A stretch of DNA of 59,138 nt from a virus (IMGVR_UViG_3300006120_000023:1-59138), one strand, 5' to 3'. Positions 4,235 to 56,190 are shown, numbered from the stretch's first letter. The notes: generated by a model from the sequence alone, not told the origin. A program made the numbers and translations.

Positions 4235-5545
4235 TTAGACCCCAGCCTCATCGAGGCCCATGTCGATCGCGTCGCCGGCGTTCATCTTCCAACGATCGTT
4301 TGTGCTAGCATTAGTTTTTGAGGATGTGGCATTTGCAGAAGCTTTAGGCGTGCGACCGGCCATCTTGAGCTGGCTGTTCTCCTGCTCAAGTTGCTTGAGG
4401 CGGGTCTCCATCTCAGCCTTTGCCGTCTGCTCGATCTTGAGCTGGTTGGCAAGGACGTGGGAGAAAGTTGCCGCGGCTGCGATCTCAGTGCGGGCCTTGT
4501 AGTCGGTAGGCCACAGCGAAGCGTTGAACCGCTGCTGCAGCTCCGCAACCCTCGTGTTGTGCGTCTGCACCTTCTGGGCTTCCTCCGGGGAGGCGTTGGC
4601 AGGGACTTCCTTGAACCGAGCCCAAGGCACATCCTTGGTCAAGTTTTCAAGCTCCTTGGCAATGTTCTGAGTCTCGGTCTGGTACCACTGAGCTCTCTCG
4701 TTCTTTTTGGCCTCGAGGATCTCTTCGCCTTTGGTGGCGAGGTCATTGTATTCCTTCTCCTGCTGCTCGCGCAGGTCAGCTACCTTGAGGAGGTTCTGTT
4801 CAAGTTTCTTGGAGTCAAGCAGCTCGAGCTTGTCGAGCACGTTCTGCTTCCACCAAGCACCGGAGACCTTGTCAGGACCGCCGGCTTTTTCAATCGACGA
4901 GATGGTTTCCTCGGAGGCGCCGTTCTTCTTGAGGATGGAATAGATGCTTTCCTTTGCCTCGGAGATTGGGGTCTCGTACTTGCTCTTGAGCTCGGGATCG
5001 TTCTTGAGATCAAAGATCTGCTTGAACTTGCGGAGCTCCTCGTAATCCTCAGGCGTCTGGCGCGGGCTCTGCTCAAGCTCAGTCAGCCTTTGGCGGAGCT
5101 GTGCCGCCTCAACCGCTTCCTTTTTGTAGCGGGAAGCTGTCTCTTGAAGTTTTTTCCAGTTGCTTTGATTCGACTCGCTGAGGTTGCGTGGCTGTTCAAT
5201 CGCCGCGATCTCGGGGTCGATTTCTTCTGACTGCTGAACGGGTTGCTCAGGCTCAGGAGTCTTATCCCCCGGGGCAGTAGGATCTTCAGGAGGTGTTGCA
5301 GGAATGTCATTTTCAGGTGTCTGGTTGAGGTCCTCGTTGAGGAAATTTTCATCCTCGGTAGGGTTTGCGGCAGGTGCGGACTCTTCAGGCTCGGAGGGCT
5401 TGAGAGCTTCTTCGGCAAGCGCGGCGTCGTCGATCTTGTCGAACTCGTCCAAGAAGCTCGGATCCACTGGGTCGGGGTCAAGGCGCGGGGCAGAGAATCC
5501 TGTCACGCCGTTGTCTGGTACTATGTTTTCAATGTCGTCACTCAT
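4235..5545 (-). CDS. putative capsid scaffolding protein
   Basis: Acidic Pro-rich disordered N-terminus and long coiled coils; lies between portal and capsid genes. Confidence 0.6.
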   Translation of the reverse strand: MSDDIENIVPDNGVTGFSAPRLDPDPVDPSFLDEFDKIDDAALAEEALKPSEPEESAPAANPTEDENFLNEDLNQTPENDIPATPPEDPTAPGDKTPEPEQPVQQSEEIDPEIAAIEQPRNLSESNQSNWKKLQETASRYKKEAVEAAQLRQRLTELEQSPRQTPEDYEELRKFKQIFDLKNDPELKSKYETPISEAKESIYSILKKNGASEETISSIEKAGGPDKVSGAWWKQNVLDKLELLDSKKLEQNLLKVADLREQQEKEYNDLATKGEEILEAKKNERAQWYQTETQNIAKELENLTKDVPWARFKEVPANASPEEAQKVQTHNTRVAELQQRFNASLWPTDYKARTEIAAAATFSHVLANQLKIEQTAKAEMETRLKQLEQENSQLKMAGRTPKASANATSSKTNASTNDRWKMNAGDAIDMGLDEAGV

Positions 5546-5548
5546 ATT

Positions 5549-5788
5549 TTACATGGTTGTGAATCCGGTTCCGGATCCGTCTGTTTGTGTTTTTTGTTCC
5601 GTCAAAAGTTCGTCAATGACGTTAAGGATGTATTCTGCGCCGGACTTTTCCTTGGAGGATAGTGCCACGGCCTCGATCGTGTCTCCCCGGAGTTGGGGGA
5701 CACGTGTTCTCAGGTAGGCGCGGAGCCTGCTGCTTGTTGACTGGTCGTACTTCCTGAGATGTACGGAGTCCGTTGATGTCCATTCCAT
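5549..5788 (-). CDS. hypothetical protein (head module)
   Basis: 79-aa ORF filling the gap between neighbours, with an A/T-rich leader. Confidence 0.65.
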   Translation of the reverse strand: MEWTSTDSVHLRKYDQSTSSRLRAYLRTRVPQLRGDTIEAVALSSKEKSGAEYILNVIDELLTEQKTQTDGSGTGFTTM

Positions 5789-5812
5789 AAATTATTTTAT
5801 CCCGACGATTTT

Positions 5813-6094
5813 TTATTTTTGTTTTTCGGCGTCTCTGAGTCCTTGTTCGATTGCGTCTTCGGCCTTCAGGTTTTGGGCCTTTGCGTCACGTCCGTAGGCA
5901 TTCGGAGAATCCGCGGAGGGCTTCTCAAGCTTGGACGCGGCTTCGTCCTCAGCCCTCTGGGCCGGCGTCAGGATAGCGTTTCCCTTGGTGTCAACCCTTC
6001 CGACGGGAAGGCTTGCGGCTGCTCCCGCGGGCTTTGCAGCTTCGCCGGAGTAGTCAACGAGGTTTTGGTCTTTTGTGGGGTTGAATCCGCCCAT
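5813..6094 (-). CDS. small Ala-rich protein with scaffold-like C-terminal motif
   Basis: 93 aa, ending AEDAIEQGLRDAEKQK. Confidence 0.65.
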   Translation of the reverse strand: MGGFNPTKDQNLVDYSGEAAKPAGAAASLPVGRVDTKGNAILTPAQRAEDEAASKLEKPSADSPNAYGRDAKAQNLKAEDAIEQGLRDAEKQK

Positions 6095-6109
6095 AGTTTT
6101 GGTTGGTTG

Positions 6110-8527: not shown

Positions 8528-8531
8528 AGGA

Positions 8532-9140
8532 TTATTTGTTTAACCAGCAGAAATCGGGAATGTTGGAGGATTGTGCGAGGTCTTCTGGGTTCAGGAAAAC
8601 TGCGGCGCGGTTGTCGTGCCGGAGTATCGAGCATCCACCAAGAACTGCTGTTGAAGCTGTTTCTCTAGCTTGTCTTACGCTCGCTGACAAGCGATCAGTT
8701 GCAACAATGCAGGATCCGCACCCTCCGCGCCAGTTGACATTGTACGGACAGCGCCCGCAAATCTTTGCCCTAGCCTCGGCCAACTCGTCTCCAACAAGCG
8801 GGTGCTCACGTTGCGCGGAGAGAAGATTTTTGGCCCAAGTCTGGATGTCGCTGAGCAGTTCCTGAATGTTCCAGTTGGCCGGCTTGCGGGTGACAACGAC
8901 GTCCTCAACGTGGTGGCAGAAGTCCGGCCACTGGCCGCAAATGTAGTCGGCGACATCTTCCTTGGTCCGGTTGTTGGGTATGGCGTTCTCGGCACGGAAG
9001 CTCTCGACCTTCTTGTAGAGATCGTCAATCGTGTCTGCATGTATTCGGACGTCGCCTTGGTAGTAGTGGAAACCACTAGGCGGAACCATCCCTCTGATAG
9101 GTTTAGCCACGGAGGGGGAATACTGCATTTGTAATGCCAT
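8532..9140 (-). CDS. Cys-rich hypothetical protein (metal-binding or disulfide-bonded)
   Basis: ARAKICGRCPYN, GCGSC, GGCSIL and PDFCWL motifs. Confidence 0.7.
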   Translation of the reverse strand: MALQMQYSPSVAKPIRGMVPPSGFHYYQGDVRIHADTIDDLYKKVESFRAENAIPNNRTKEDVADYICGQWPDFCHHVEDVVVTRKPANWNIQELLSDIQTWAKNLLSAQREHPLVGDELAEARAKICGRCPYNVNWRGGCGSCIVATDRLSASVRQARETASTAVLGGCSILRHDNRAAVFLNPEDLAQSSNIPDFCWLNK

Positions 9141-9154
9141 GTCAATAATTTGTT

Positions 9155-9228
9155 TGGCTACCCCTCATGGACTCGAACCATGACAAACAGAGTCAAAGTC
9201 TGTTGTGCTACCATTACACCAAAGGGTA
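9155..9228 (-). tRNA. trnQ: tRNA-Gln (anticodon UUG)
   Basis: TACCCTT/AGGGGTA acceptor stem, GGTGTAATGGTAGCAC D arm, ACAGA-CTTTGAC-TCTGT anticodon arm, GGTTCGAGTCC T loop, encoded CCA. Confidence 0.95.
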
Positions 9229-9231
9229 AAG

Positions 9232-9327
9232 TCTCCCGCCCCGGCTCGTCAGCCGGTTGTATGGCACGCGGGGTGGCCACTCCTTGAGCTTGCACGAACC
9301 CATTGGGTCCGAAGAGGCATGGGGAGA
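9232..9327 (-). ncRNA. candidate structured RNA between terL and tRNA-Gln
   Basis: Closing stem TCTCCC/GGGAGA; inner hairpins CGGACCC-AAT-GGGTTCG and CCGGCT-GACG-AGCCGG. Confidence 0.4.
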
Positions 9328-9333
9328 AGATTG

Positions 9334-11205: not shown

Positions 11206-11417
11206 CGGCGTATCGGACCTTTCTTGGGAATCCGACCAAGGTCCCACGTGCCGTTCTTCTCGACGGTGAGCTGGTCGGTCCTGAAATGCCGGACGGTCTG
11301 GTCGTGCAGCACAACGGTCCACACGTCGTTGGCAAAGGTGCCGCTGTTGGCGGCATAGATGGCCATGCCCTTGCCGAGCTCGGTCACCACCGGAATGGGG
11401 TCTGGGAAGAATAACAT
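11202..11417 (-). CDS. hypothetical phage protein
   Basis: 71 aa (PIPVVTELGKGMAI...NDVWTV), ATGA-coupled to terL. Confidence 0.65.
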   Translation of the reverse strand: MLFFPDPIPVVTELGKGMAIYAANSGTFANDVWTVVLHDQTVRHFRTDQLTVEKNGTWDLGRIPKKGPIRR

Positions 11418-11505
11418 CAGATAACCTTTGGAGTGAATAATTGCTATTGTTGATAATCAACAAGTTACGCAAATGTAAGATAATGCGGGCAAAATTTTAC
11501 ACATT

Positions 11506-12039: not shown

Positions 12040-12263
12040 GAATGTGTGGTTGCTTTACAGAGTAGACTAAGATTTGTGAGACAAATAGTCGCAACAGAGT
12101 AACGTTGTCAACATCAAATCTGTTCAATTTAGAATCATTCTAAATAAGAGCTATCGCTGAGAATTTTCTTATGACACACGAAGCCCTTGCACACTACAGC
12201 CGGCCATTGTAGCGTTCACCTGTCGCCCGCGGTTTCTCGCCGTTGCTTGGCGGTGTTCTCTGC

Positions 12264-12314
12264 AAAGCCCTCGACCAGCAACCTGATGCCGCTGGTCGGG
12301 GGTTTTGTGTTTTT
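12264..12314 (+). terminator. intrinsic terminator-like hairpin
   Basis: AAAGCCCTCGACCAGC...GCTGGTCGGGGGTTTT followed by GTGTTTTT. Confidence 0.55.
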
Positions 12315-12485
12315 GTCAGAAAAAGTACCCATTTTTTCTGACAAGAGTTACCATTCAAATGTAGTACAACGCATTTACCATCAGCAAGTAGTAATGACCT
12401 AAACCTATTCACAAGTCACCGACCCTGTTTCCGCTTGAATTTACAAAACCTTGCCCTTTATGCAAAGGTATGTAGGGTTTGTTTT

Positions 12486-15083: not shown

Positions 15084-15424
15084 ACCCCGACACACCAACA
15101 CCGAGGACGGAGGCCGTTCATAATTTAGTATCAAAAATCAGCCGTTGTGAGTCTGATCTACGTCATGAGAGGAGGCTAACAAACCTCTCTATGGAGCTAG
15201 AGCGCGAACTCGCCGATAAAACCAACGAGGTCGCAAGGCTCCGTGCGTCCTTAGAACTATACGAGAACATGATTAACCAGCGAGATGATGAACTGATAAG
15301 ACTCCGTGAGGAGAACGCCGAGCTAAAACAAGGAAAAGTCTTTGTCGATCCCAAGTGGATCTACAACCTAGAAACCCAACTAGCGACACCCCCTTGGGGT
15401 CCCGACGGAGACCCTGACCTATGA
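15080..15424 (+). CDS. hypothetical coiled-coil protein
   Basis: TPRTEA...LERELAD...VARLR heptad pattern. Confidence 0.6.
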   Translation: MNPDTPTPRTEAVHNLVSKISRCESDLRHERRLTNLSMELERELADKTNEVARLRASLELYENMINQRDDELIRLREENAELKQGKVFVDPKWIYNLETQLATPPWGPDGDPDL

Positions 15425-16038
15425 TCGCCCTCGTAACCGGCGCCACAAAGTTTTTCCGCCCCGTGCTCGAGGCCACGCTGCCCAGTAAAATTGCTTACTG
15501 CGACCGGCACGGCTACGACCTGCACGTGATCAACTTCGCACCCGACCCGTTGCTTGGCTTTGCCCGCATGGAGCGGACCTTTGACATCAGCCACGGATAC
15601 GACGCGACACTCTGGATTGACGGTGACTCAGTCATCACCAACCCAGACATCAAGGTCGAAGACATCGCCGGCGATACTCCGTTCACTGCGAGCCTTGATT
15701 GGTGGACTTCCGCGGGATACTTCTCGACCGGCAACTTCATCATCCGCCCGGACTATGCGTACCTCGAGATGGAATACTACGACGAGAAGGAATTTTTCCT
15801 CGGCCACGAGTGCCAAGAGCAACACGTGATGAACGAAATGCAGAAAAAATGGCCTGACCTGTTTACAATCCGACCGCAGGAAATCTTGAACGCTGTCCCA
15901 CAACGTGTGCGTGAAGATGTCAGCTGGAACGGACGGGATCCAATCATCCGCCCTTGGCAGCCCGGGGACTTCCTCGCACACCTCACCGGATGTGGGAACG
16001 ACACCCGCTTAAAGATCATACGTGAGCTGACGGCGTAA
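15421..16038 (+). CDS. GT34-like (GMA12/MNN10 type) glycosyltransferase
   Basis: KIAYCDRHGYDL, LWIDGDSVITNP, STGNFII, EQ and WQPGDFLAHLTG motifs. Confidence 0.8.
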   Translation: MIALVTGATKFFRPVLEATLPSKIAYCDRHGYDLHVINFAPDPLLGFARMERTFDISHGYDATLWIDGDSVITNPDIKVEDIAGDTPFTASLDWWTSAGYFSTGNFIIRPDYAYLEMEYYDEKEFFLGHECQEQHVMNEMQKKWPDLFTIRPQEILNAVPQRVREDVSWNGRDPIIRPWQPGDFLAHLTGCGNDTRLKIIRELTA

Positions 16039-25512: not shown

Positions 25513-25515
25513 TCC

Positions 25516-38300: not shown

Positions 38301-41300
38301 GTAGCCCGCGTACCCGGCGTCCTCGATCATGTTGTCCATTTTCTCCCGGTTCATCATGCCGGCGACACCGAGCGGATCCTTGCTCAGGTCGTAGATGCTG
38401 TTTCCGTCAACCTTGGCAACATACGGCATGCGACCCTTCATCAGGCCCTCGTAGTTGCGGTCGTTGTTCAAATAGAAATAGGTCTTCGGGGCACCGCGGA
38501 GATCCATCGGGGTCGCGGCACCTTTGCCGAACTTCTTGGGGTCGGCAACTTTGAGCCCGGAGGCGCCAAAGTGGACTAGATCGAGCTCGCCACCGACGCT
38601 GCCTTCCTTCTCTTCGGAGGAGTGCTGGACGGTGAGCTTTTTGGCGGGGAGATAGCTGATGAAGGGAGAGACTTTGCTTTCGGCAGCGTTTCCATATTCG
38701 GCACGAGGTCCGAACTCTGTCTCGAAGAGTTTGTTACGCACCTTCAAGGCATTCTCACTAACGGGGGACCCGAGCAGAACATCCGCCCCTTCTTCTTGTG
38801 CATATTTTGCGATTTCTCGGTACAAGGCTTCCCCGTAGCCTTTACCCCGCAGCCCTTCTGAGACGATAGTGTGAACGATCTCAAGAGCGTTCCCATATTC
38901 GTGGAGTTTTACCTCCGCCGATCCGATATTTTTACCCTTATCGTCGAACAGGTAAATGTGGTGCGTTCCGAACTCACTATTGTCCGAAGAGGTAACGCTA
39001 TACTTTGGCAACCTAGCCTTCATCTTGTCGAGCTCTTCCTGAGTCGGCACTGGCTTGGTCTCGCCTTTGGCAGGCAAAAAGCTCACGTTTGCCCGGTCTC
39101 CGTACACGGGATTCTTTACAAAAACTGTGTTGCCGACACTCACGGCTTCGTCGCCTCCAGTAACAGGCTCGTCGGTCGCCTTGTCGTAAAAATAGGAATG
39201 CTCCTTGGGGTCAAACCCTACCGGGGTCCAGTCGTTAATATCCTTGGGGATCTCTCGGGAGGGATTGAAGTCTCCGGTGACCGTTGCGATTGGGAATTTC
39301 TTGCTTTCCCCACGATAGATCTTACCCGCCCCGGTCTCGTTGGAAACGAACGTCGGATTGTCAACGCGGGCCACGGTGTCGTAGCCAATAACCTCACCGA
39401 CTTTGCTAGGCGTCCCCTTTTCGTGGACGGTGACAACGTAGTTGCCGGTGCGGTTAAATGCTGGGATGTCAATACGGAGGGCCACCGGATAACCTTTTTT
39501 GAGGCCCCGGGCTGCCCCAAACTTGGGCTGTTTGCTGGAATCAAGAGCTGCCTTGGCTTCTTCTTCCTTAGGCTGATTGAGGAATTTTTCGTTTTCCCCA
39601 ATCTCGCGGGTAATCTTGGCAGGCAAGAAACTTGGTCCCTGCTTGGTCCCAGCTTGGGCCTCTTTCTCGGCTGCGTCAATGAACTCCTGAGGCAGTGCGA
39701 TGTTTTTCTGCTCAGCAAACGGACGCTCGGTGACAGGCACGTAGCCTTTCTCGCCCTTCTTGGCGATGTTGCCCTCCTCATCCCGAAGATGTGGTCCGTA
39801 GTTGACCCAGCTATTTTGGGCCAACGTCTCCGCGGCCAGTGCAGGTTTGGCAGCGTCAGAGAACATGCGGCTGTGCTCCAGATAGGCGTTGAACTCACCC
39901 TTCGGACCAAACTCGTACCCATGTGCCCCGTGACCCACAATGTCGTGCACAACGCGGAACACGTCGTTGACCGGTACGTTCTCGGCACCATTGAAGTTGA
40001 CCCCAGAGTCCTGCAGCATCGGGTTTTCTGCACGCATCTTTGGCGTGATACCGGATTCCCCATACCCTTCTTTAGTCTGGAAGTAGTACAAGTGCTTATT
40101 GTCACGCACGTCCTTCATCATCTCAGCCGAATTGGAGTATGGCTGGCCTTCACCAGTCCAAGGAGTGGCGGTATACCCAGCTTTTTGGAAAGCTTTCCAC
40201 TGGTCAACAACCTCGTTGGCAAGTGCCGTGTACGCCTTCTTGACCTCGGGGTTCGTGGGTTCGTTTTTGGCCTCTTCGTAGTGGTCGGCGATGCGTTTTG
40301 CAAGCTCTTCATTGACCGGAACTGCCTGCCCGTGGGGGTTATACGGCATGCTAGCACCCTCAACATAATCCTTGGAAACCCGCTGCACGTCTTGATTTGC
40401 TGCCCTTGTAGGCTGGGCGTAGGGGGTGCGCTGGTCTGGCTGAACGTAGGTTGCTTTGGCTGCACCAAGCCCCTTCAAGATCGGATTGGGCTTCTCCTCT
40501 TCCTGAGGTCTGATAGCCGGCTGCTCTCCGTCCCGGGAGGGCAGGAAGTTCAGTTTTTGCAATTCGTAGTTGACAGGAATCGGGTGCGCCGAGCTCTCAA
40601 GCATGTCGGCCACAGCGTCCGCACGCACCGACATGATGGTGCGATTGGCGTCCTTGCCGCGGGGATCCCCCTTGCGGCGGGGGATGACGGTCCGGTCGGG
40701 GTTATTGCCACGGAACTCGTTGCTGGTGAGGTTGAGGAAATCGTTGAAGATGTCTTTCTTTTGTTTCGCAACCTTGGGGTCCGGATCGAGCCCGGTCTCA
40801 CCCTTGCGGGCAACCAGATTCTCTTCCTTCTCCCTTTCCTCGGGAGGAAGGGTCGGGTCCACCCACTGTTTGAGGTGGTTGGGCAGATAGTCGGTGATGA
40901 ACTGTTGGAAGAACGCCTCGCGGCTCCCTCCCCAAAGTGCCAAGCGACCGGAAAGTCGATCTGCCCACAGGTTCATCTTGTCAAAAATACGAGAGACCGA
41001 GATGCAGGTGATCAGGAAATTTCCTTCCTTGCTGAAGTGCATGCCGATCGGCACCAAATCGTAAATTTTCGGAGCAAACGACACCGCACGACCGCGGTCA
41101 TCTATGCGGGCAGCGTAGTCAATTATCATGCGCCGGCCCTCTCCCGACTGGAGCAGGTCGTTGAACCGCAAAATCACATCCTTGATCTTTGCCGGCACAA
41201 TCTGCTCGGGGAGAGCCCGGAGGGCAGCAATTTGCTCGGGAGTAAAGTTTCCGCGGTAGGTGAGACCGTCCTCAGACACAGGGCGGAAGCCCTCAGGCTC

Positions 41301-44300
41301 TCCCTTGTAGGCGTTGTCAAGGGCGTCGCGGATGAGCTGGGCACGGGTCTTGACAATCTGCTTGATCTCACGCTGCGATAGCATTTCCGGCGTCTCGCCG
41401 TCAGCCTTCATCACAATTTCACGGGAAACCTTGATTGTCCCGCCCTCAGGGACCTGCATTCCCGCCACCTCGGCGGGTGCGTTTCCATACCCGCTGCGCT
41501 GGTTCAGGGCGCCGTTTTCTTTGCCCCACAGCCCCTCGGAAGCCATCGGATCGGAGACCACCCCGTGGCTGACCACGTTTCCGTCCTTGTCGTAGACAGT
41601 CGCACGGAACTCGGTCTTGAACAGCCCGGAATCCTTGCCGTATTTTTCACGGAGATCTTTGCGTGCAGCGAGCTTGGCACGAGTAATCATCGGCATCACC
41701 GACTCACTGGCCGTGGGGGACGATACCATACCGTTGAGCTTGCGGAACTCACGGAGGGCATTCCGGTATGCAGCGAGCACCTCGGGGGAGAACTTGGCAC
41801 CGGTCGCCACCGATAGGGTGTTGGAATAGGGATCCTTACCCCCTGCCCCAAGGAAATCTTGGATTGCCCGGTACCCCTTGCTGTTTTGGGCTTTGAGGGA
41901 TAGCCAATCCATCATGTGCTGGCCAAAGGAGTCCAAAGAATCAAGGTTCCGGTTTGTGTACGCTTGGCTGTTGAGGTCGGCCCGGACCTCGCGCTTCATG
42001 TAGTCCGCCACCTTGCCCTCATCGAGACGATCGTGTAGCTCGTCCCAGTGGCCGCGGTTGATCGCCCACTGCTTCGGATCCTTGACCTCTTTGAGGTACT
42101 TGTTGGTGTACATCTCCACCAGAGCCTTGTTGCTGAATTGGCCGGTCCTGCCCGTGAGCGGGTCATCGAAGAGTCCCTCCTCGGCATCGGCATTCAATTC
42201 ACGCCACTCGGGGACAACATCCAGCAGGTGGCCGAACTCGTGGCGCATGGCTTCGTACAGGGACTGCCGCTTCTGGTGGGCTTCCTCCATCAGGTGGTCA
42301 ACATTTATGACCGCGGTGGGGTTCAGGGGGTCAAACACCACCTTGCTGCCGTCAGGGCGCAGGGCTGCGGGGAGATCTTTTCCGGGGATGAATCCCTGCC
42401 TGCTAATCCCGGCAGTGAAATGCCCGCCCTCTACGATCGCGTCAATCTGATCGGGGGTGAGGTTGGGATTATTTTTCTTGAGCTGTTCACGAATCTGGTC
42501 GCTGTTTAGAATCTCGATCTTGGCATTCTTTGGCCCGACCCGCATGGACCCGTTGATGTCATTGTGGAACGCGGTCAGAAGGTTCAGGAGCTGCCGCTCG
42601 TAAGCCTGCCGTGTGGCAACGTTGGCCTGAGAGACTGCGTCGAGCTGTTTCTGGGCCTGATCAAGTCGATCTGCGGAAAGTTTTGCCTGCTTCTGGTCCC
42701 CTGAACTTACTGCCGAGGCATAGGCAGCCTTTGCCACGTCCACATCGGATTGGGCCTTTGCGATCACGTTGTCGAAGGAAACAAATCCCTTGACGTGATC
42801 CACTGTCTCGGGGCTCATCTCGGACATCGTCTTGAAATTATCGACATCCTGCTGGCGGAGTTTCCGAGTTATCGTAGCGGGGTCTTGGCGCAGTATTTTG
42901 TGATACGTCTTGCCGAGGGCGGCAAACAGGAGACCGCTCTTGGCGCCCTCCATGATGTCGTCGTAGTTTTGGGAATTGAGGACTCCGGTAGCCGCCCCAA
43001 GGGCAGCCATGTTGACTCCCTCCTTGCCGTAATCCAGCAAGAGATTTCCAAGTGCATCAATCGTCCTCCCGTGCTTCTCAAACAGGTTCTGGGTGAGCTT
43101 GGATACCTCGGGGGTCTCCCCGGCAGTCTGGAACATCCCCTTCTTGCCACCCGCGGAGATTGATCGGGCAAGCGACAGCTCCTCGAGGGTGCGGGGCACC
43201 GCGGCAGCCAGCTTGATTCCTTTCAGTCCGGCAGCCTCCGTAACAATACCACCAAGGGCTCCAAGGACGGGATTCTCTTTGTCCTCGTGCGCTCCGATAA
43301 TTGCACCCGGGCTGTATTTCACGATCGGCGCACCTAGCTTGGCCAGCCGCGGATAGTTTTCCGCAAAATTGCTTGCCGCCTCCTGCAGATTGTCAATCAG
43401 GTCGGCTGTCTTTCCGGCGATCTTACCGAACCCCGAGAGCTTGCTGCGGTCTACGACTCTCTTGGCGAGCTCTGAGGCCTCCAGTGCCTGCTGGGCTTCC
43501 TTGGACATCGTCATTGCACGGAACAGCGGCTTGGCGTTCCTTGCGACGGTCAAAAGATCGCCGGCAAATCCGATCTCCCCAAAACCTCCGACGGGGTTTG
43601 TCCAAGTGCCAAACTCACGGATGTCCTTGTCCACGGAGCCCTGCTCTTTCTCAACCTGCCCGGCAACTTCTTGGGCTGCGCGGGTCACTTCCTCGTCATT
43701 CAACCCCGGAGCCGTGGAATGAATCAGGGACTTGAGCCCCTCCTGCACCCAAGGGTGAAACACCATCTGGCCGTAGACCGTAGGGTGTGCGCGGTTAAGG
43801 GTTGCGTTGGCGGTGTCTACAAGTTCACGGGCCTGCCACCTACGGAAGCGATCCTCGTCAGTCGTCCCGGTGAGGGCGCTTGCTTTTTTGAGAGCCCAGT
43901 CCGTGACCCCCAGTCCGCCAGCGGCCATCTTTTCACCAGTCCACGCCAGAGCCCCCGGGAGCTCGAGAGTTGGGGCGATATAGGAACGGATTGCGACCTC
44001 GGGGGCAACTGGGGCTCCGGTGGCTGCGGCGGATTGCCTCCCGGCTTCAATCGCATCCGTGTACGAGGCACCATTCAGCTTGGCCTTCAGCGCCCCGTGG
44101 ATAAAGTTCCCCGCGGCCTCGGACCTATCTTGAGACGCCTCGAGAGCGAGCCGGTTGGCTTCCTCTTGCGGGGTGCCGGCACCTGCGGCAAATAATTTGC
44201 TTGCCGCTAGGTTGGACAACGTCCGGACAGGGCTAGACCAGACCGAGAGTGCGTCATTGAATTTCAGGGCTCCCTTGGTAAAATTTTTCGCAGTCTCCGC

Positions 44301-44777
44301 AAGACCTTCAGAAACACTTGGGTGCTTTAGTTCACCGGCCTCGTCGGCTTCCCAGACCTTCCTCTGCTGGTCGGTGGGCATTGCATAGTCCGGACGGAGC
44401 TGCTTCAGCTCATAGAGGTCTTGGGGCTCCCAAGTGCCCATCAGCTTCTGATGGCCGGGGTCAAGCTGGTTGATGTCTTTATTTTGATACTCCGCGGCAA
44501 GCTGCTGCGCTTTTGAATAGTCCGGAACTTCTACTCGGGACTTTGCGTAGATTTCGTTTTGCTGCGTCTGCTGCTCAGGGGGAAGGAACTGCACGTTGCT
44601 GCCTTCCAAGGCAACCGATTGATACAGCTGTTCGGGCGTCAAGAACGGCGTGGCCTTTGGCGTGGCGTCCGGAAGCTTTTTTGAGGATTCCACCTCAGCA
44701 TTGTCCTCATGCAGCTTGACAAGCTGATCAGGAGGTAAAAATGTCTGGGGCTTTGTTGTATCAGCGTTGTCCGACAT
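35376..44777 (-). CDS. giant polyvalent internal virion (ejection) protein, 3133 aa
   Basis: Last of the ejection-protein block. Contains HEFGH zincin, VHDIVGH metallo-domain, GNAT (LRGKGYGEALY), two ART-like modules (HHGT...GFYFS...GFDGV) and a kinase-like module (GGEH..VVK..DLHGMN..VID). Confidence 0.85.
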   Translation of the reverse strand: MSDNADTTKPQTFLPPDQLVKLHEDNAEVESSKKLPDATPKATPFLTPEQLYQSVALEGSNVQFLPPEQQTQQNEIYAKSRVEVPDYSKAQQLAAEYQNKDINQLDPGHQKLMGTWEPQDLYELKQLRPDYAMPTDQQRKVWEADEAGELKHPSVSEGLAETAKNFTKGALKFNDALSVWSSPVRTLSNLAASKLFAAGAGTPQEEANRLALEASQDRSEAAGNFIHGALKAKLNGASYTDAIEAGRQSAAATGAPVAPEVAIRSYIAPTLELPGALAWTGEKMAAGGLGVTDWALKKASALTGTTDEDRFRRWQARELVDTANATLNRAHPTVYGQMVFHPWVQEGLKSLIHSTAPGLNDEEVTRAAQEVAGQVEKEQGSVDKDIREFGTWTNPVGGFGEIGFAGDLLTVARNAKPLFRAMTMSKEAQQALEASELAKRVVDRSKLSGFGKIAGKTADLIDNLQEAASNFAENYPRLAKLGAPIVKYSPGAIIGAHEDKENPVLGALGGIVTEAAGLKGIKLAAAVPRTLEELSLARSISAGGKKGMFQTAGETPEVSKLTQNLFEKHGRTIDALGNLLLDYGKEGVNMAALGAATGVLNSQNYDDIMEGAKSGLLFAALGKTYHKILRQDPATITRKLRQQDVDNFKTMSEMSPETVDHVKGFVSFDNVIAKAQSDVDVAKAAYASAVSSGDQKQAKLSADRLDQAQKQLDAVSQANVATRQAYERQLLNLLTAFHNDINGSMRVGPKNAKIEILNSDQIREQLKKNNPNLTPDQIDAIVEGGHFTAGISRQGFIPGKDLPAALRPDGSKVVFDPLNPTAVINVDHLMEEAHQKRQSLYEAMRHEFGHLLDVVPEWRELNADAEEGLFDDPLTGRTGQFSNKALVEMYTNKYLKEVKDPKQWAINRGHWDELHDRLDEGKVADYMKREVRADLNSQAYTNRNLDSLDSFGQHMMDWLSLKAQNSKGYRAIQDFLGAGGKDPYSNTLSVATGAKFSPEVLAAYRNALREFRKLNGMVSSPTASESVMPMITRAKLAARKDLREKYGKDSGLFKTEFRATVYDKDGNVVSHGVVSDPMASEGLWGKENGALNQRSGYGNAPAEVAGMQVPEGGTIKVSREIVMKADGETPEMLSQREIKQIVKTRAQLIRDALDNAYKGEPEGFRPVSEDGLTYRGNFTPEQIAALRALPEQIVPAKIKDVILRFNDLLQSGEGRRMIIDYAARIDDRGRAVSFAPKIYDLVPIGMHFSKEGNFLITCISVSRIFDKMNLWADRLSGRLALWGGSREAFFQQFITDYLPNHLKQWVDPTLPPEEREKEENLVARKGETGLDPDPKVAKQKKDIFNDFLNLTSNEFRGNNPDRTVIPRRKGDPRGKDANRTIMSVRADAVADMLESSAHPIPVNYELQKLNFLPSRDGEQPAIRPQEEEKPNPILKGLGAAKATYVQPDQRTPYAQPTRAANQDVQRVSKDYVEGASMPYNPHGQAVPVNEELAKRIADHYEEAKNEPTNPEVKKAYTALANEVVDQWKAFQKAGYTATPWTGEGQPYSNSAEMMKDVRDNKHLYYFQTKEGYGESGITPKMRAENPMLQDSGVNFNGAENVPVNDVFRVVHDIVGHGAHGYEFGPKGEFNAYLEHSRMFSDAAKPALAAETLAQNSWVNYGPHLRDEEGNIAKKGEKGYVPVTERPFAEQKNIALPQEFIDAAEKEAQAGTKQGPSFLPAKITREIGENEKFLNQPKEEEAKAALDSSKQPKFGAARGLKKGYPVALRIDIPAFNRTGNYVVTVHEKGTPSKVGEVIGYDTVARVDNPTFVSNETGAGKIYRGESKKFPIATVTGDFNPSREIPKDINDWTPVGFDPKEHSYFYDKATDEPVTGGDEAVSVGNTVFVKNPVYGDRANVSFLPAKGETKPVPTQEELDKMKARLPKYSVTSSDNSEFGTHHIYLFDDKGKNIGSAEVKLHEYGNALEIVHTIVSEGLRGKGYGEALYREIAKYAQEEGADVLLGSPVSENALKVRNKLFETEFGPRAEYGNAAESKVSPFISYLPAKKLTVQHSSEEKEGSVGGELDLVHFGASGLKVADPKKFGKGAATPMDLRGAPKTYFYLNNDRNYEGLMKGRMPYVAKVDGNSIYDLSKDPLGVAGMMNREKMDNMIEDAGYAGYFSPKSYNGAFDAIAMFKKTKLTEVQQGREIFKTPKKSKEFGIQYLPAKKMDEAHAKAIESGNTEEAQRLVDEAAKKAGYSTNLLHHGTTHNFTVFKKDRANIENDLGAGFYFSSSPEDAQANYAGEGPDLTNRIERRKEQIENDIYDIKTVSSLRDFLKQHGADESIIEDSVGYASDAEKAAAAKEIARKELSGGEQKMLKTYVHLKNPAILGGKAETRLEMEHPYDEEGEPLDEEPTGTLIDFIDGLKEASQNFEDADADKAAAMLMEQANYESINLSDAINFLKGRETGINYATDNEENLASSEIIRQALQNAGFDGVIDKTVKRFKMKGVGDDTYHVIAFEPEQIKSADPATYDDQGNLIPLSQRFNPESPDVRYLPAKKGVDGVTETEETIPTDERQPESYTQAQGAGLQAGGQSEDDRNRLLGGLASVARGAQSSGAEGVQGASGTAPRKEVEEAALRKHAEENGMMRDPDEFFRQWQNDGSEAGGEHQVSFPPGPDVVKRTPNPYYPTWADYFDSLQIHNTLFPKAALTFRGFQNVEGSGGVDIDGNKWPAGLYSEVSQPFLKIKRGLTVPETDALMKEIGFRRTLPMEYVNDDLGIKIKDLHGMNAVMLEDENGKEFPYVIDSTIVPTKTKEEQPRVDLQGHVIVNNPEADFVAKPKILVNFLPASQRINLEDYEDTPMFALPADRMGIGTKYVGPTGDKKKLSVEAQGGPEHMTLLNHGVWAFSNEGPASTFANRVDKLAEKHGTDSVLVAVTLQSPINHLRNPTGQLGYVEAMEQARDTKHLTQKQLDAQIKEMSASIVASKDKKMDEGIRSKWKQITSFGKFADAVRGKKLNFGDMEPFLKQMQRASLPISAKELQGLGLLPHDIARDLSTDWIFDLPNDTVVGLFEVKKGTRPLQDNTHYSYPWSVAGKPIGFLKDIYHIKGLTTHPGILKSTSLAWPLQRALPELDNLKKALADLKPVVTYR

Positions 44778-46839: not shown

Positions 46840-47349
46840 TTACTGCCCTCCAAAAGTGATTCCTTGGAGAGAAGGCATCAGGGCGTTTGACCCCGAAGAG
46901 GTTTTGTTGGCGGCAGTTGTCAAGGCCGGGTTTACAGCGGGGGCTCCGGAAGCGGATTGGTTGGCGGCAGTAGTCGGAAGGTATCCCGAAGCGGCTCCAA
47001 GATTTGAGGCTGCCTGAGTCTTGGCGTTGCCGAGGTTGAACCCCCCGCCGGTGACTGCATTGCCGGCACCACTTGCGGCGGCAGCGGCTGCCTGCTGCGC
47101 GGCTGCATCTTTGGCGGCTTGGACTTGATTCTGCTGGCCAAGATATTGCTGGGCGGCATTGGCTCCAGTTGCGGCCTGCTGCTGTGCGGCGTTGACTTGT
47201 GCATTCCCGGCTGCCTGCCGTTCTGCTTGGAGGGCAGCTGCCTGCTGAGCAGCCTGCTGGGCCTGCTCTTGCTGCATGAAGGCCATCAGCATCATGTCGT
47301 TATTCTGTTGGACGGTTTGTCCACCGCCTCCGCCTCCGTGTCCACCCAT
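46840..47349 (-). CDS. internal virion protein (Gln/Ala-rich)
   Basis: MGG... start, low-complexity helical sequence; synteny. Confidence 0.6.
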   Translation of the reverse strand: MGGHGGGGGGQTVQQNNDMMLMAFMQQEQAQQAAQQAAALQAERQAAGNAQVNAAQQQAATGANAAQQYLGQQNQVQAAKDAAAQQAAAAAASGAGNAVTGGGFNLGNAKTQAASNLGAASGYLPTTAANQSASGAPAVNPALTTAANKTSSGSNALMPSLQGITFGGQ

Positions 47350-47387
47350 GATCGTAGTTGGTTAAGTTGTTTTGGTTGAAATCTGAA

Positions 47388-47420: not shown

Positions 47421-47428
47421 GGCTAAAG

Positions 47429-48292
47429 TTAGGCAAGATACCCTCCCACCCCACCGATCAAGGCCCCCGCGGCGGTTCCATACGGACCAAAAGCCGAGCC
47501 AGCTAAAGCGCCTGTTCCAGCACCTGCGCCGGCAGCGGCAAGTTTGTTGCCCTGAGCCTGTGCGCTGGATGCTTGATTTGCCTGAGCGATTCCAAGTTGA
47601 TTGGCCATCTGGGACTGGACGGTCTGGCCAAGGTTGCTGTACAGGCTGTTCTGACCCTGCTCGAGGGATTGCTCAAGCGAACCGCCACCACCAAGGATGC
47701 CCTGCAGGAAGGCGTTCCCTTGAGCTGCCGTCTGGGCGTTCTGCTGGATGGGGATTGAGGCCGCAACCGAGGGGTCAAGGCCAGTCTGGGGCGTCTGCAT
47801 GTATGGTTGACCAAGCTGGGCGAGGGATTGCTGCAGCTGCAGGCCGGCAAGGGTGCTGCGGTCAAACAATCCGCTGCCGTAAATTGTGCTCTTGTTTTCA
47901 AGACCGGTTCCGTACATGCCCGGGAGGGTCTCTTGGGCAAACTGCTTCTTGGCTGCAGCCTGAACGGCGGCAGGATCAGTCAGCTGGGCAATGGAGGACT
48001 CGGTGTTCTGGCGAATCTTTGCTCCGATCGGATCAACGGCCTGCTGGAGGGCACGAGAGTTGACGGCATTGAGATAGGCGGTGTCCTTTGACGTTCCGTA
48101 TGCGCCAGATTGTCCCCAAATGTCGGCAAAAGACTGCTGCGGCTTAATCTGGGAAGCTGTCAGGAGCATCTGCGCCCGATTGGTCAGGTCTCCCTGCAGG
48201 GCGTTGGACTGAAGGCCGAGCGCGGCCAGTTGTGGAGCAATGCTCTGCTGTTGAACTCGTGGTGCGGATGATCCTCCCATAATGCCTCCCAT
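47429..48292 (-). CDS. internal virion/DNA ejection protein
   Basis: Gln/Gly/Ala-rich with a C-terminal glycine zipper GAGTGALAGSAFGPYGTAAGALIGGVGG. Confidence 0.65.
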   Translation of the reverse strand: MGGIMGGSSAPRVQQQSIAPQLAALGLQSNALQGDLTNRAQMLLTASQIKPQQSFADIWGQSGAYGTSKDTAYLNAVNSRALQQAVDPIGAKIRQNTESSIAQLTDPAAVQAAAKKQFAQETLPGMYGTGLENKSTIYGSGLFDRSTLAGLQLQQSLAQLGQPYMQTPQTGLDPSVAASIPIQQNAQTAAQGNAFLQGILGGGGSLEQSLEQGQNSLYSNLGQTVQSQMANQLGIAQANQASSAQAQGNKLAAAGAGAGTGALAGSAFGPYGTAAGALIGGVGGYLA

Positions 48293-48296
48293 ACCT

Positions 48297-48686
48297 TTAG
48301 CCGTTTAAGCTGAAGACTTCGCGTTCCATGCGCTGAAGCCCCAGCTTGTTCATGATCTTCTCAGGGAAATTCGCCCTGCCTTCAGCAATCGCCAAGGGAA
48401 CGCCAATGTATCCGGTCCTTCCGGAGAGCTGTGTGTGGACACGCCAATCGTTCATAACTTGGATCACATCCTGCGGCCTTGTGAGACCGGGATGGAAGGC
48501 AGGGTAGACTGTGGGGATGAAAACATGGTCGGAATAGCCGAAACATATATCATCCCGGTAGTGTCCGTAAACATTTATTTGCGGATGTGGGACAATCTCA
48601 TGGTCAAAAGATGCAGCAAAGGTCTGCATCTGCTGCATCTCCTGCGTGTTGGGGGCGATGTATTTGTAGGTTATTTGGGGTCTCAT
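48297..48686 (-). CDS. hypothetical protein (slot of T7 gp13-like GNAT-fold proteins)
   Basis: 129 aa between tail and ejection genes; C-terminal MNKLGLQR recalls the GNAT xxKLGF motif. Confidence 0.5.
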   Translation of the reverse strand: MRPQITYKYIAPNTQEMQQMQTFAASFDHEIVPHPQINVYGHYRDDICFGYSDHVFIPTVYPAFHPGLTRPQDVIQVMNDWRVHTQLSGRTGYIGVPLAIAEGRANFPEKIMNKLGLQRMEREVFSLNG

Positions 48687-49720
48687 GTGGCAAAAACGTT
48701 GGTGCTGTCTATGGGCAAATGATAGTTGCTGATGATCGGAGCCGAAGGTTTGGTAGAAGACTTGCTTACATAAACCGAGAAGGATCCGTTATTGTAATCA
48801 ACCCAAGCGTAGGTTGGGTTTCCGTCTGCCAAAAGAAGGTTGTTGTATGGATATACTCGTTTGTAAGAATCTTCTCGATGAGATATATCGCCATTTTCGA
48901 CCAATCCGATATAGTTAGAAGTCATCACCTGCGGCGTCGGAGGGACCCCTATAGAATACCCGGGAATTTCTAGCAAGGGGTTTTCTGGAATGTCTGTGCC
49001 ATATTCACGGTTGTAAAAAGTATCAAACTTGACCCCGATACTTTTTGAGATTCCTTGATACCCAATTCCTCCACCAGTACCCCCTACGGAATCTGAAACA
49101 GCCTGTATTACAAAAACAATACCGTCGGCTACTTCAACGGTATCCCCCGGAGTTATCGTGAAATTGAATTGTACCCCGAAATTTGCCGTAGGTGAGGCAG
49201 CGTCGGCCCTGAAATTGACGGGCGAACTTAGGAACATAGATCCTGCTTGACCCTGCTGCACCGGAGTTAAAACAGCGCCACCATTAGGTCCTAAAACGGC
49301 GCTTCCGTTATACGTGAAGGAATAATCAAAACCCGAGCCGTAATCAATTACCTTGCCGTTAGCAAAAGTGAACTTCAGACCGTTTACTACGTGGGTTGCA
49401 TCAAACAATCCGGTGGCCGAGGTAAACCCAATGTAAGCCGAAGTGACCCCCACAGTAATTCCCTTGGGTGAGATTTGAACCGTGGGGGATCCTCCGACTC
49501 CTCCGGACCCAGAAAAACCAAACAAGCTATTGCTTGAGTCGGTGACGACTTGGCTACGCACAATCGAATTGCCACACACCACGCAGGGGAGGCAGCCCGT
49601 CACGGGGCTTTTGAGCGGCACGGATGAATAGAGCGGCACAACGATGTCGTTTCCATACGGAGAAGAAAATTGGTTAGGGAACGAAGTGACCGGTACGGAG
49701 GCTGTTTGTATCGAGGGCAT
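48683..49720 (-). CDS. virion protein with legume (L-type) lectin domain
   Basis: VLTP...GQAGSMF, FNFTI, ADGIVFVIQ, GGGIGY, SIGVKFDTFYN and AWVDYN. Confidence 0.8.
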   Translation of the reverse strand: MPSIQTASVPVTSFPNQFSSPYGNDIVVPLYSSVPLKSPVTGCLPCVVCGNSIVRSQVVTDSSNSLFGFSGSGGVGGSPTVQISPKGITVGVTSAYIGFTSATGLFDATHVVNGLKFTFANGKVIDYGSGFDYSFTYNGSAVLGPNGGAVLTPVQQGQAGSMFLSSPVNFRADAASPTANFGVQFNFTITPGDTVEVADGIVFVIQAVSDSVGGTGGGIGYQGISKSIGVKFDTFYNREYGTDIPENPLLEIPGYSIGVPPTPQVMTSNYIGLVENGDISHREDSYKRVYPYNNLLLADGNPTYAWVDYNNGSFSVYVSKSSTKPSAPIISNYHLPIDSTNVFAT

Positions 49721-49722
49721 GG

Positions 49723-51858: not shown

Positions 51859-51860
51859 GT

Positions 51861-54800: not shown

Positions 54801-55385
54801 GGTCGAAGTAAACTTGTTGAAGGGAGCAATGGCAGCCGATCGGGTGACGATTGTGTTGCCATCGGGGGTAATGGTCCCGAGGTTGAAATCCGACAGACTG
54901 TGAACCTGCACAATCAAACCGTCTACTCCGGTTCCATCAACCGTCTGAGATCTGAGGGGTCGATTGTTGTTGTCGGTGCCCACCAAACGAATCGTGGACC
55001 CAATGTCGGCATCGGTCTCGGCCACGGCAATGACCTGTGAGGGCTGCTTGATGTCCATCTGGGTGGCAACAAACCCCCGGTCATCCCAACACCACCCAAC
55101 GGTGTTGTACATTCCACCCTTGTTGACGTTGTATTGGAAGAAACGCCCGCGGAAATAGAGCGGGGATCCGTCTATGTTGACGGCAAGCGGTACTTCAATG
55201 CCCCGGGGAAGGGTGACGGTGCAGCCATCCCACCCCGTGCAGACATCGACTTCAGCTTGGGTATGGAACCAGTGACCAGACTCCATAAGAGCCTGCACGG
55301 CCTGCGTCAGCTTACGAAAAACCTTGCTCTGGTCAGTCGTCCCAAGGATTTCAGAAGCCTCGTCAAATATCTGCGAGACGAACAT
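51861..55385 (-). CDS. tail tubular A / adaptor-like protein with a large repetitive beta insertion
   Basis: Helical N- and C-termini (VTLPRGIE; YRRIRI...DYIPI) flank repeats of H.L..G..V...GTLP.PL....YYV and G.GY..APTVTI.GGGG.GA.A.A. Confidence 0.6.
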   Translation of the reverse strand: MFVSQIFDEASEILGTTDQSKVFRKLTQAVQALMESGHWFHTQAEVDVCTGWDGCTVTLPRGIEVPLAVNIDGSPLYFRGRFFQYNVNKGGMYNTVGWCWDDRGFVATQMDIKQPSQVIAVAETDADIGSTIRLVGTDNNNRPLRSQTVDGTGVDGLIVQVHSLSDFNLGTITPDGNTIVTRSAAIAPFNKFTSTSAHQLSSGEPVVLTSSTGTVPTGLTLSNQYYVGVVNPTTIQLYNDPLYAQQGEYPINLSSIANAGTLTLTDTRTANPVTSVLLSSAPLITVSKGNEVVFSGTLPAPLTSGVTYFANALDSTNLQIFASLSDALNGINPIYLNGSSSGFTIQIRYPIAPITKLAFNAPHLFQTGDVVQASTNGGTLPQPLIAAQNYYVQVVDSTTIILHTSAADTATGNNPILLTTAGSGQNILTKLIPATAITGSTSQITAPGFTNLPTAAGSGASVQAVVSGSVTSITQTAQGSSYTSAPTVTISGGGGYGATAHAVIGTVTGVDAGKVISIVLDQPGSGYISAPTISITGGGGSGAAATAVVSYSFVTQYQIVNGGSGYTVPPAITFATPTGAQTAPVATASISNGAVNLISITNAGTGYTIAPTVTFTNASGDTTGTGATAVAAINSSGIVTGIFITNAGTAYTAPPIIALSPPASGTTATASCTIANGVLSQVTVVSTGTNYGTAPAVTVTPSTGVFVSFSSTGTLPAPLQEGATYRAEVPASGGRFTLFNDDYSPLTLTSVGSGQLYLDITRAFSVAFTNTWSGNFASVPSGTGIYFGTDYLLPITSPAIDNGVTQFYLKKLTNTTAQVYSDSGLTSLVTVTSLGTGQGYFALQQSVNPSIYKNYIALNSLQYLQNGETVQFSTASGGSLPTGLAPNTDYTIQIVGSYIQVYSGGSLVSLTSLPVGQMNLLVQRGVTPKASNTVVLTNAIFETGTAVIPRASTGDILDPNLVAGTTYYVRLIDSADIQLYPTQQQAINTTSTAGLISYTTTGNTSTSTFFLDAVEDPTFVKAIYHIEKPITQGYISLYAYDYGRSNDMTLIGQYHPTEVNPKYRRIRIGKPAAWARILYRVQHPYITSVYDYIPIEQERAILAAVHAIDLEEKDFIEQSQKYWQVAFGYLRSQQTSMDGHAIEPIQVNGLTYGDKTDPVIDSGWGGYDYYDGSY

Positions 55386-55394
55386 GAGGTTGTT

Positions 55395-55751
55395 TTACCT
55401 CTTATTACCTTCCTCGGCAAGTCCTTTCAGGAAATCATCGTCACTCATCTCGCCCTTGCCGCCGGCAGCGGGAGGCTCGGGGGCCGTAGGGGCTGCAGCA
55501 GGTGCTGAAGCGGCTCCGCCTTGAGCTTGAGAATCGACGCCCTGCTTGAGTTGATCAAGTCCTTGGGACAGCTGGGTCACAAGGGCGTGGATTGCGTCAA
55601 AGGCGGCCTTGGGCATGTTGATCATGACGGATCCGTCCTGTCCGCCGGCAGGGGCGGGAGCTCCGGCCATGTCGGCAGACATTGCGGGGCTGTTATCGGT
55701 CGGAGTGGTTGCAGCCTGCTCGGAAGGAGGCATGGAAGGGTCGTTTGCCAT
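55395..55751 (-). CDS. hypothetical acidic Ala/Pro-rich protein
   Basis: Likely start MANDPSM at 55751. Confidence 0.65.
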   Translation of the reverse strand: MANDPSMPPSEQAATTPTDNSPAMSADMAGAPAPAGGQDGSVMINMPKAAFDAIHALVTQLSQGLDQLKQGVDSQAQGGAASAPAAAPTAPEPPAAGGKGEMSDDDFLKGLAEEGNKR

Positions 55752-55755
55752 ATAA

Positions 55756-56190
55756 TTATGCTTTTGGTTCGGTGTTTTCTGATTCAGCTGCGAGGAGTCC
55801 TTTTTCAATGGAATCTTCGGGATTTTCTTTGGCGACATCGCGGCTCATTTTGCCTTCACTCTGGGCTTCCGTGACGGGTTTGATTCCGTGAATTTGAATA
55901 CCGACCTTGTGGCGGGTTTCATGCTTTCCGTGGCGGGTCTCATGATGGGTGCTTTCGGAGACCTTCTTGTAGTGAATGTGGGCCGTGCCGTGCTTGGCGA
56001 GATGGTCGATCAAGTGCTTGGCATGCTCGCCCTCAAAATGAAGCTCAGGATAGTACACCTTGGGCTCCTCGTGGTTTTTAGCGGCAGCGGAGGCAGCGTC
56101 AACGGCGTGCATCCCGTGCATGTGGTTCATGTCTTCTCCGAGGTGCGTGAAGCCCTCGGGGATTTCTTGGTTTTCGGTTTCGTATCCCAT
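55756..56190 (-). CDS. His-rich protein with scaffold-like C-terminal motif
   Basis: 18 His in 144 aa; ends PEDSIEKGLLAAESENTEPKA. Confidence 0.7.
   Translation of the reverse strand: MGYETENQEIPEGFTHLGEDMNHMHGMHAVDAASAAAKNHEEPKVYYPELHFEGEHAKHLIDHLAKHGTAHIHYKKVSESTHHETRHGKHETRHKVGIQIHGIKPVTEAQSEGKMSRDVAKENPEDSIEKGLLAAESENTEPKA

Follow-up and report, generated by a model that had tools for sequence, protein, structure and literature searches.

A conserved C-terminal tag shared by a scaffold-like protein and two small-protein classes of a tailed-phage genome: a candidate procapsid docking peptide

The viral sequence IMGVR_UViG_3300006120_000023 is a single 59138-base contig of a tailed-phage genome, analyzed here over its whole length (the window), and encodes three otherwise unlike proteins of 436, 93 and 144 amino acids (aa) that end in the same short tag, D[AS]I[DE]xGLxxA. 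The tag occurs far beyond chance, sits at the C-terminus and is conserved in related phages, where it is restricted to three classes of protein: a scaffold-like protein, hypervariable small proteins that start with MGG and a family built around a conserved domain. Carried in this way by a scaffold-like protein and two small-protein classes, it resembles a natural address tag for the capsid interior. By analogy with known systems, we favor, at somewhat better than even odds, the reading that the tag is a procapsid docking peptide shared by the scaffold-like protein and both small-protein classes, most likely binding the coat protein. To our knowledge, the loading of non-structural proteins into tailed-phage heads is understood in detail for very few systems, and poorly for N4-like capsids, and a tag of about ten residues common to a scaffold-like protein and unrelated small proteins provides a directly testable handle. 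If the docking reading is right, this phage would have reused its scaffold docking helix as a general address label, its hypervariable payload locus would be worth screening for anti-defence functions, and the tag could serve as a natural means of loading foreign proteins into HK97-type protein cages.

Occurrence of the tag in the genome

The whole 59138-base sequence, translated in six frames, contains exactly three matches to the pattern D[AS]I[DE]xGLxxA, all on the minus (coding) strand and ending 2, 4 and 9 residues before a stop codon (Table 1). The three protein ends, ...NAGDAIDMGLDEAGV for the 436-aa protein, ...KAEDAIEQGLRDAEKQK for the 93-aa protein and ...NPEDSIEKGLLAAESENTEPKA for the 144-aa protein, are exactly as they had been written in an initial annotation of the sequence, made before the present analysis. 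That annotation had named chance frequency of the motif as a reason to abandon the idea of a shared tag. When the 71 window proteins (18564 residues) were residue-shuffled 2000 times, the mean number of matches was 0.0005, compared with the three found. The looser core [AS]I[DE]xGL gave a shuffled mean of 0.085, and within the last 25 residues of the proteins 0.0075 matches were expected against three observed. As the pattern was defined after the data had been seen, its conservation in relatives is the independent test, and this conservation holds (see below). The codons of the tag differ synonymously across the copies (GAC GCG ATC GAC, GAC GCA ATC GAA and GAT TCC ATT GAA), so it is the protein and not the DNA that is conserved; a DNA-level element was ruled out on the same grounds.

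The tagged proteins had also been said to share nothing else. Pairwise BLASTP agrees with this for two of the pairs, with the scaffold-like and 93-aa proteins, and likewise the 93-aa and 144-aa proteins, alike at their tails only; for the scaffold-like and 144-aa proteins, the tail is not among the best BLASTP matches. The 93-aa and 144-aa tails match with an E-value of 5e-4 over about 30 residues, a stretch that takes in an upstream element (GRDAKA in one, SRDVAKE in the other), and a basic or 'RD' element often precedes the tag core D-A-I-(D/E)-x-G-L-x-x-A by about 8-12 residues. All three tagged genes sit within one structural block. The initial annotation had placed the 144-aa gene 50 kb away from the other two, and this distance proved to be an artefact of where the contig is cut: the contig opens within the structural block, and in the related locus L088 some 8 kb separate the start of the capsid gene from the 144-aa gene downstream of it, so the 50-kb spacing is meaningless.

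Distribution of the tag in related phages

Related loci, each covering ±10 kb around one of three query genes, were retrieved from IMG/VR with the putative portal protein (80 loci, 62-95% identity), with a 1174-aa protein (8 loci) and with the capsid protein (80 more); retrieval with a 687-aa protein gave no pattern match. Across the six frames of the first 88 loci (1.17 Mb), the full pattern was found 59 times and a looser form 74 times, every one on the gene strand and at most 20 residues from a stop, and the bare core was found 78 times on the gene strand near a stop and twice elsewhere. The 80 capsid-centred loci contain the core 97 times, with 91 of these on the gene strand at most 20 residues from a stop; the other six comprise two in 144-aa-type proteins with longer acidic tails and four on the opposite strand. 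Proximity to a stop is common in six-frame space, where 44% of the residues of open reading frames (ORFs) fall at most 25 residues from one, and the telling points are the strand, the location in real genes and the position in proteins of more than 400 aa. The C-terminal position, enrichment of which the initial annotation had proposed to look for in related phages, is seen in all 59 full matches, and the conservation in orthologues that its proposal required is seen in each of the three classes, patchily in the MGG proteins, as described below. Two of the portal loci, L017 and L054 (71% and 66% identity to the query), belong to one 71,431-base IMG/VR contig, in which two related phages may have been joined by chimeric or concatenated assembly.

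For a database-wide search, a profile of 24 tails was compared with proteins of 78-2000 aa, and the 8000 candidates sharing most words with it were scored. The best 120 matches consist of 87 proteins of the 144-aa type, 21 MGG proteins, 8 scaffold-like proteins, 3 resembling the 144-aa type and one with EDLIEKGL, and none of these 120 has a Pfam domain. As scoring was confined to the 8000 top-word candidates, the lack of other tagged classes is weak evidence. No meaningful match came from searching Pfam, PHROGs, NCBIfam and PDB sequences with the capsid, putative portal, scaffold-like, 79-aa, 93-aa and 144-aa proteins.

The scaffold-like protein

The 436-aa protein carries the tag at its extreme C-terminus, and the tag is present in all 51 related loci that hold the 3' end of the gene, with 6 further loci cut short of it. 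In 40 aligned orthologues with a mean column identity of 57%, residues D425, A426, I427, D428, G430, L431, E433 and A434 are invariant. The tails end in ...GLDEAG(V/A/L), and a more distant clade whose capsid protein is 55% identical keeps the tag as DAIE(A/E/Q)GL..AEG.

AlphaFold2 predicts an all-alpha protein with two long helices, at 242-302 (61 residues) and 349-397 (49 residues), a disordered acidic N-terminal part (48-105) and a disordered linker (401-414), after which the tag forms a terminal helix at 423-435. By helical arithmetic, A426, G430 and A434 (i, i+4, i+8) fall together with I427 and L431 on one face of this helix, as opposed to D425, D428, D432 and E433. We consider the protein probably a scaffold, judging from its position and composition and from a predicted shape that is all helical and closes with a flexible linker and a last helix. 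It has no match in Pfam, PHROG, NCBIfam or PDB sequences, and the nearest named atlas cluster, PF09306 Phage-scaffold (37% of members, score 0.90), is a lead only. The MGG(A/S/T)N signature found at the N-termini of many of the small proteins is absent from it.

The 144-aa protein family

Homologues of the 144-aa protein were collected with a hidden Markov model from which the last 32 residues had been excluded, to keep the tag itself from deciding membership. It yielded 35 matches, 32 of them with a complete end, among which the strict tag is found in 25, variants of the form (D/E)(D/E)IE(K/A)GLS in 6 and a degenerate tag in one (L107). The tag persists down to about 35% overall identity. Family members are laid out as a conserved core, with the motifs GTAxIH(F/Y)KKV and IHGIKP, followed by a linker, the tag and an acidic tail. 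The description of this protein as His-rich in the initial annotation is correct for this genome and does not extend to the family, in which the histidines are not conserved whereas the tag and core are. An atlas lead to PF21628 Gp10-like (27% of members) found no support when 10 orthologues were scanned against Pfam.

The 93-aa protein and the slot behind the putative portal gene

The gene for the 93-aa protein, which starts with MGGFNP, occupies a slot directly after the putative portal gene that is hypervariable among relatives. Of 55 loci with both flanks of the slot, 7 have no ORF of at least 60 aa in it, and the other 48 have 68 ORFs of 74-321 aa, so that copy number runs from zero to three genes, with up to three in tandem. 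Most of these ORFs (44 of 68) start with MGG, usually MGG(A/S/T)N. Among the 44, the tag is strict in 15, variant in 15 and lacking in 14, giving 30 of 44 with a strict or variant tag, compared with none of the 24 non-MGG ORFs. Pfam searches with 10 of the larger MGG proteins detected no domain.

The N-terminal signature MGG(A/S/T)(N/P) is not confined to the slot. We also observed it on two Gly-rich proteins of 169 aa (46840-47349) and 287 aa (47429-48292), both on the minus strand, whose genes occupy the position of the small ejection-protein gene of phage N4; the 169-aa protein and its orthologues end in ...GITFGG(Q/S/Y), and the 287-aa protein has a Gly-rich end. Across loci L001-L168 there are 94 distinct MGG ORFs, and the signature may mark internal or ejected virion proteins. 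Their second codon is variable (GGC 42, GGT 30, GGA 19 and GGG 3), which argues for selection of the signature at the protein level; the third is mostly GGA (71 of 94). Many MGG genes in the loci are preceded by leaders resembling TAA CCAACTAC without a Shine-Dalgarno sequence, with an instance in the window at 47354-47364 on the minus strand. The upstream word TAACCAACTAC is not significantly enriched in the window (11 matches with at most 2 mismatches, 6.9 expected).

The capsid protein and a candidate docking site

Because the capsid gene is cut by the contig start, a full-length orthologue (L088:1069-2436, 455 aa) was folded together with 79 homologues. The model (mean predicted local distance difference test, pLDDT, 83.9; predicted template modeling score, pTM, 0.80) has the HK97 fold, with the N4 capsid protein as the best Foldseek match (9e99_A, E-value 7.6e-11) and HK97 itself also matched (1ohg_A, E-value 4.7e-7). 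This fold is the type of shell for which C-terminal docking peptides are known. The protein is conserved throughout (mean 0.86 in 57 orthologues), and a basic helix in its N-arm, at about residues 19-33 (VNRIIGQIARVLARK), is among the best-conserved stretches. Its charge would suit the acidic tag helix, and we regard it as a candidate docking site. Complex predictions that paired the capsid protein with the C-terminal 45 residues of its scaffold-like counterpart scored 0.02, 0.31 and 0.49 in separate runs, giving a median of 0.31 against a mark of 0.32 and control values of 0.00, and are counted neither for nor against binding.

Proposed role of the tag and alternative explanations

Under the docking reading, the acidic C-terminal helix, which is predicted to be amphipathic, would act as a short linear docking motif of head assembly. 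The scaffold-like protein would present it at the end of a flexible linker, the hypervariable MGG proteins and the conserved domain protein of about 130-145 aa would carry the same tag, and all three classes would dock at a common site in the procapsid as it assembles, most probably one on the HK97-fold coat protein. In this way the small proteins might co-assemble with the scaffold or compete with it. The initial annotation had gone further in proposing that a scaffold coat-binding helix is reused to load cargo. What stands of that proposal is a real, C-terminal and conserved tag, beyond chance, on unrelated proteins of which one is scaffold-like, in a phage with an HK97-type capsid; the packaging of the small proteins, their function and their fate would follow only by extension. 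The P22 precedent on which it drew does not extend to sequence, as the tag is acidic and shows no likeness to the coat-binding elements of P22 or 80alpha.

Several observations weigh against docking on the coat protein. Besides the lack of likeness to the 80alpha RIIK hook and the P22 helix-turn-helix, the small-xxx-small face of the tag helix suits helix-helix self-association as well as it suits coat binding, and the helix itself is predicted with modest confidence (block pLDDT 53-65). On the MGG proteins the tag is patchy, with 14 of 44 proteins untagged and 7 of 55 loci devoid of a slot gene, so its role there must be dispensable; even the closest relatives, L001 and L080, have a weakened 93-aa tag, EDQIEQAL. 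The related loci share ancestry, and counts among them are not independent events. Finally, the scaffold and portal assignments come from position, size and predicted shape, with no family or PDB-sequence match.

Some of the same features would fit a partner other than the coat protein, such as another copy of the tag, the body of the scaffold core, the putative portal or the 79-aa protein, with the small proteins riding in on a T4-like scaffold core. We judge this rather unlikely, though it is the strongest of the competing explanations. The A426-x3-G430-x3-A434 spacing is typical of close helix-helix packing, and the capsid targeting sequences of T4 act via the scaffolding core and not the shell (PMC9026906). 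In the present genomes, the MGG genes directly follow the putative portal gene. Speaking for the coat, the C-terminal end is the coat-binding end of the P22 and herpesvirus scaffolds, and the same is described for the 80alpha scaffold (PMC5644958). It is also conceivable, if improbable, that the tagged small proteins modulate assembly instead of being cargo, occupying the scaffold sites of the coat so as to tune nucleation, capsid size or scaffold release, and leaving with the scaffold. CpmB does this with a copied scaffold tail (PMC5644958), and a modulator would be compatible with a 93-aa protein that is only 16% hydrophobic and has no recognizable domain, and with ten larger MGG proteins that are likewise without a Pfam domain. 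A slot hypervariable in both length (74-321 aa) and copy number (0-3) nevertheless suits arms-race payloads better than a structural regulator, and the genes are phage-borne and syntenic and not those of a satellite.

A role as a protease signal, either a cleavage site in head maturation or a host C-terminal degron, removing the scaffold and the small proteins, appears highly improbable to us. The structural block does encode a conserved 98-aa protein with an invariant HExxH motif (769-1065; homologues in 14 of 80 capsid loci), and the T4 targeting peptides double as cleavage sites (PMC9026906); yet Pfam, PHROG, NCBIfam and PDB-sequence scans detected no prohead-protease family, and the invariant tag residues make up a face of a helix rather than an extended site for cleavage. 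A C-terminal degron was rejected as unsuited since the distance from motif to C-terminus ranges from 0 to more than 20 residues. Hardly credible is a relic of 3'-end exchange between genes, in which the likeness would have no common function. The 93-aa and 144-aa tails are indeed alike over about 30 residues, as after a module transfer, but the tag is invariant in the scaffold-like protein, whose mean column identity is 57%, and is kept by members of the 144-aa family that are about 35% identical overall, with diverged flanks and varied codons. Returning to docking on the coat protein, one may imagine a portable capsid address system in which the scaffold's coat-docking helix has been copied onto a hypervariable portal-adjacent cassette and a domain protein, which would enter procapsids and be delivered, as arms-race payloads, together with the DNA and a packaged polyvalent protein, throughout a widespread clade of uncultured phages. 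The tag, C-terminal and derived from the scaffold, would then correspond to the T4 capsid targeting sequence and, on the side of phages, to the loading peptides of encapsulins. This more far-reaching version we put forward as a speculative possibility that is more doubtful than docking itself.

Comparison with known systems

The closest parallel is the scaffold of phage 80alpha and the SaPI1 protein CpmB, which have a near-identical C-terminal helix-and-hook (RIIK) that binds the coat N-arm (PMC5644958). In both cases a scaffold or scaffold-like protein and an otherwise unrelated small protein have a C-terminal element in common, which in that system is an amphipathic helix of about 16-21 residues and here is predicted to be one. 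Unlike CpmB, which is a satellite hijacker's copy, the tagged proteins described here are encoded by the phage's own genes, are syntenic in dozens of relatives and form three classes. The sequences differ as well, with an acidic DAI(D/E)xGL in place of RIIK, and an RIIK-like hook is absent from all 46 distinct scaffold-like tails; coat binding was seen for 80alpha and CpmB, whereas here it is proposed by analogy.

In phage T4, a short conserved terminal peptide loads the divergent internal proteins IPI-III and Alt into the capsid, and this N-terminal signal of about 10 residues is cleaved by gp21 and aimed at the scaffolding core (PMC9026906). The resemblance lies in a conserved signal on otherwise divergent small head proteins, which here are the tagged MGG proteins (30 of 44, 74-321 aa). 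In contrast to T4, the tag is C-terminal and also found on the scaffold-like protein itself, and no prohead protease family was found in the scans described above.

Encapsulins, which lack a portal, a terminase and a tail, take cargo into their HK97-fold shell by means of short C-terminal peptides on flexible linkers, and a linker-tethered C-terminal peptide combined with an HK97-fold shell is what we see or, as regards the binding, would expect here. The differences are that the terminase-like, tail and lysis genes here mark a tailed phage, that the tag has another sequence and that no enzyme cargo was recognized. In herpesviruses and in the nested protease/scaffold genes of lambda-like phages, a second protein enters the procapsid via the scaffold's C-terminal coat-binding end. 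Those genes overlap in frame, whereas the present three are separate and non-homologous, with independently encoded tags.

The genome resembles phage N4 and the Schitoviridae in a capsid fold closest to that of N4 and in gene order, namely portal, a small gene, a gene of about 400 aa and coat, and later a small gene, a gene of about 650 aa and a giant protein. Comparison with N4 by hhalign or BLASTP showed no homology between the scaffold-like, capsid, portal and giant proteins and gp57, gp56, gp59 and gp50, and the giant protein here is of the polyvalent kind, in contrast to the RNA polymerase of N4. According to PMC11445570, no scaffold has been identified in N4.

The principle of loading by a short shared signal is therefore known from 80alpha and CpmB, T4, encapsulins and nested genes. 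What differs here is the use of three non-homologous phage gene classes, a C-terminal acidic signal unrelated in sequence to known elements and the link to a hypervariable locus. A literature search turned up no description of such a tag system, which is not proof of absence.

Genome organization and neighboring genes

Table 1. Features of the window discussed in the text
Feature	Coordinates	Strand	Remarks
Major capsid protein, first 176 residues	3..530	-	gene cut by contig start
Scaffold-like protein, 436 aa	4235..5545	-	between putative portal and capsid genes
Tag core DAIDMGLDEA	4244..4273	-	scaffold-like protein, residues 425-434 of 436
Conserved 79-aa protein	5549..5788	-	separates MGG slot from scaffold-like gene; match in 57/80 portal loci
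93-aa protein, starts MGGFNP	5813..6094	-	low in hydrophobic residues (16%); slot just after putative portal gene
Tag core DAIEQGLRDA	5828..5857	-	93-aa protein
Putative portal protein, 805 aa	6110..8527	-	from size and position: terminase-like gene on one side, scaffold-like on the other; order as in N4
118-aa Ala/Pro-rich protein	55395..55751	-	directly after 144-aa gene; membership among tagged proteins uncertain
144-aa protein	55756..56190	-	conserved-core family with linker, tag and acidic tail
Tag core DSIEKGLLAA	55786..55815	-	144-aa protein

On the minus strand, the genes run from a 712-aa terminase-like ORF, which has a weak match to a large-terminase PHROG (E-value 0.0014), through a 202-aa ORF, the 805-aa putative portal, the 93-aa and 79-aa genes and the 436-aa scaffold-like gene to four weakly matched or unmatched ORFs, the 98-aa HExxH ORF and the 5' part of the capsid gene. 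The contig ends cut two genes, the capsid gene (1-530, 3' part missing) and a GH108-type endolysin gene (58761-59138, 5' part missing) whose GH108 assignment was checked on an orthologue. Judged from the relative L088, the contig lacks several kb of sequence that would comprise six or seven genes. The window also encodes a protein with a tail-fibre PHROG match and a family A DNA polymerase. The putative portal has no sequence match to portals in Pfam, PHROG, NCBIfam, PDB-sequence or N4 comparisons, and tblastn with it against 50,697 phage records gave zero matches and thus no cultured phage. Orthologues of the 79-aa protein mostly have a short conserved C-terminus of the F(T/V/A)(S/T/A)M type.

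The 118-aa protein ends in a conserved acidic stretch, DDDFLKGLAEEGNKR, which is similar to the tag without fitting its pattern, and in relatives this end is conserved as ...DLA(M/N)FAQEL(N/S)NRG. Two N4 proteins (L169) have ends with a similarly tag-like look, ...SDIENALDVARGEPEEV in gp58 and ...SDEDFMKLPRLNGL in gp57, which may be due to chance.

The four ORFs of 242-353 aa that separate the scaffold-like and capsid genes (1084-4202, minus strand) include one with weak glycosyltransferase and phrog_1574 matches and one with a weak DUF6492 match. Glycosyltransferase-like genes are unusually located in such an interval; another such ORF lies at 15421-16038. The 98-aa HExxH protein, whose gene shortly precedes the capsid gene on the minus strand, may be a small metallopeptidase; its homologues all have HExxH and lie at varying places in the structural block, and Pfam and NCBIfam searches with it gave no match.

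A 3133-aa polyvalent protein (35376-44777, minus strand) combines Kinase-PolyVal (E-value 7e-21) and ART-PolyVal (E-value 8e-10) matches with a GNAT acetyltransferase domain. It occupies the position of the N4 virion RNA polymerase, to which comparison showed no similarity. Also in the structural block, a 345-aa protein (48683-49720, minus strand) has a legume-lectin-type beta-barrel domain (Lectin_legB, E-value 7e-14, above the Pfam cut-off; Lectin_L-type_dom, E-value 1e-19, with 71.5 bits against a cut-off of 78.3) and may be a receptor-binding part.

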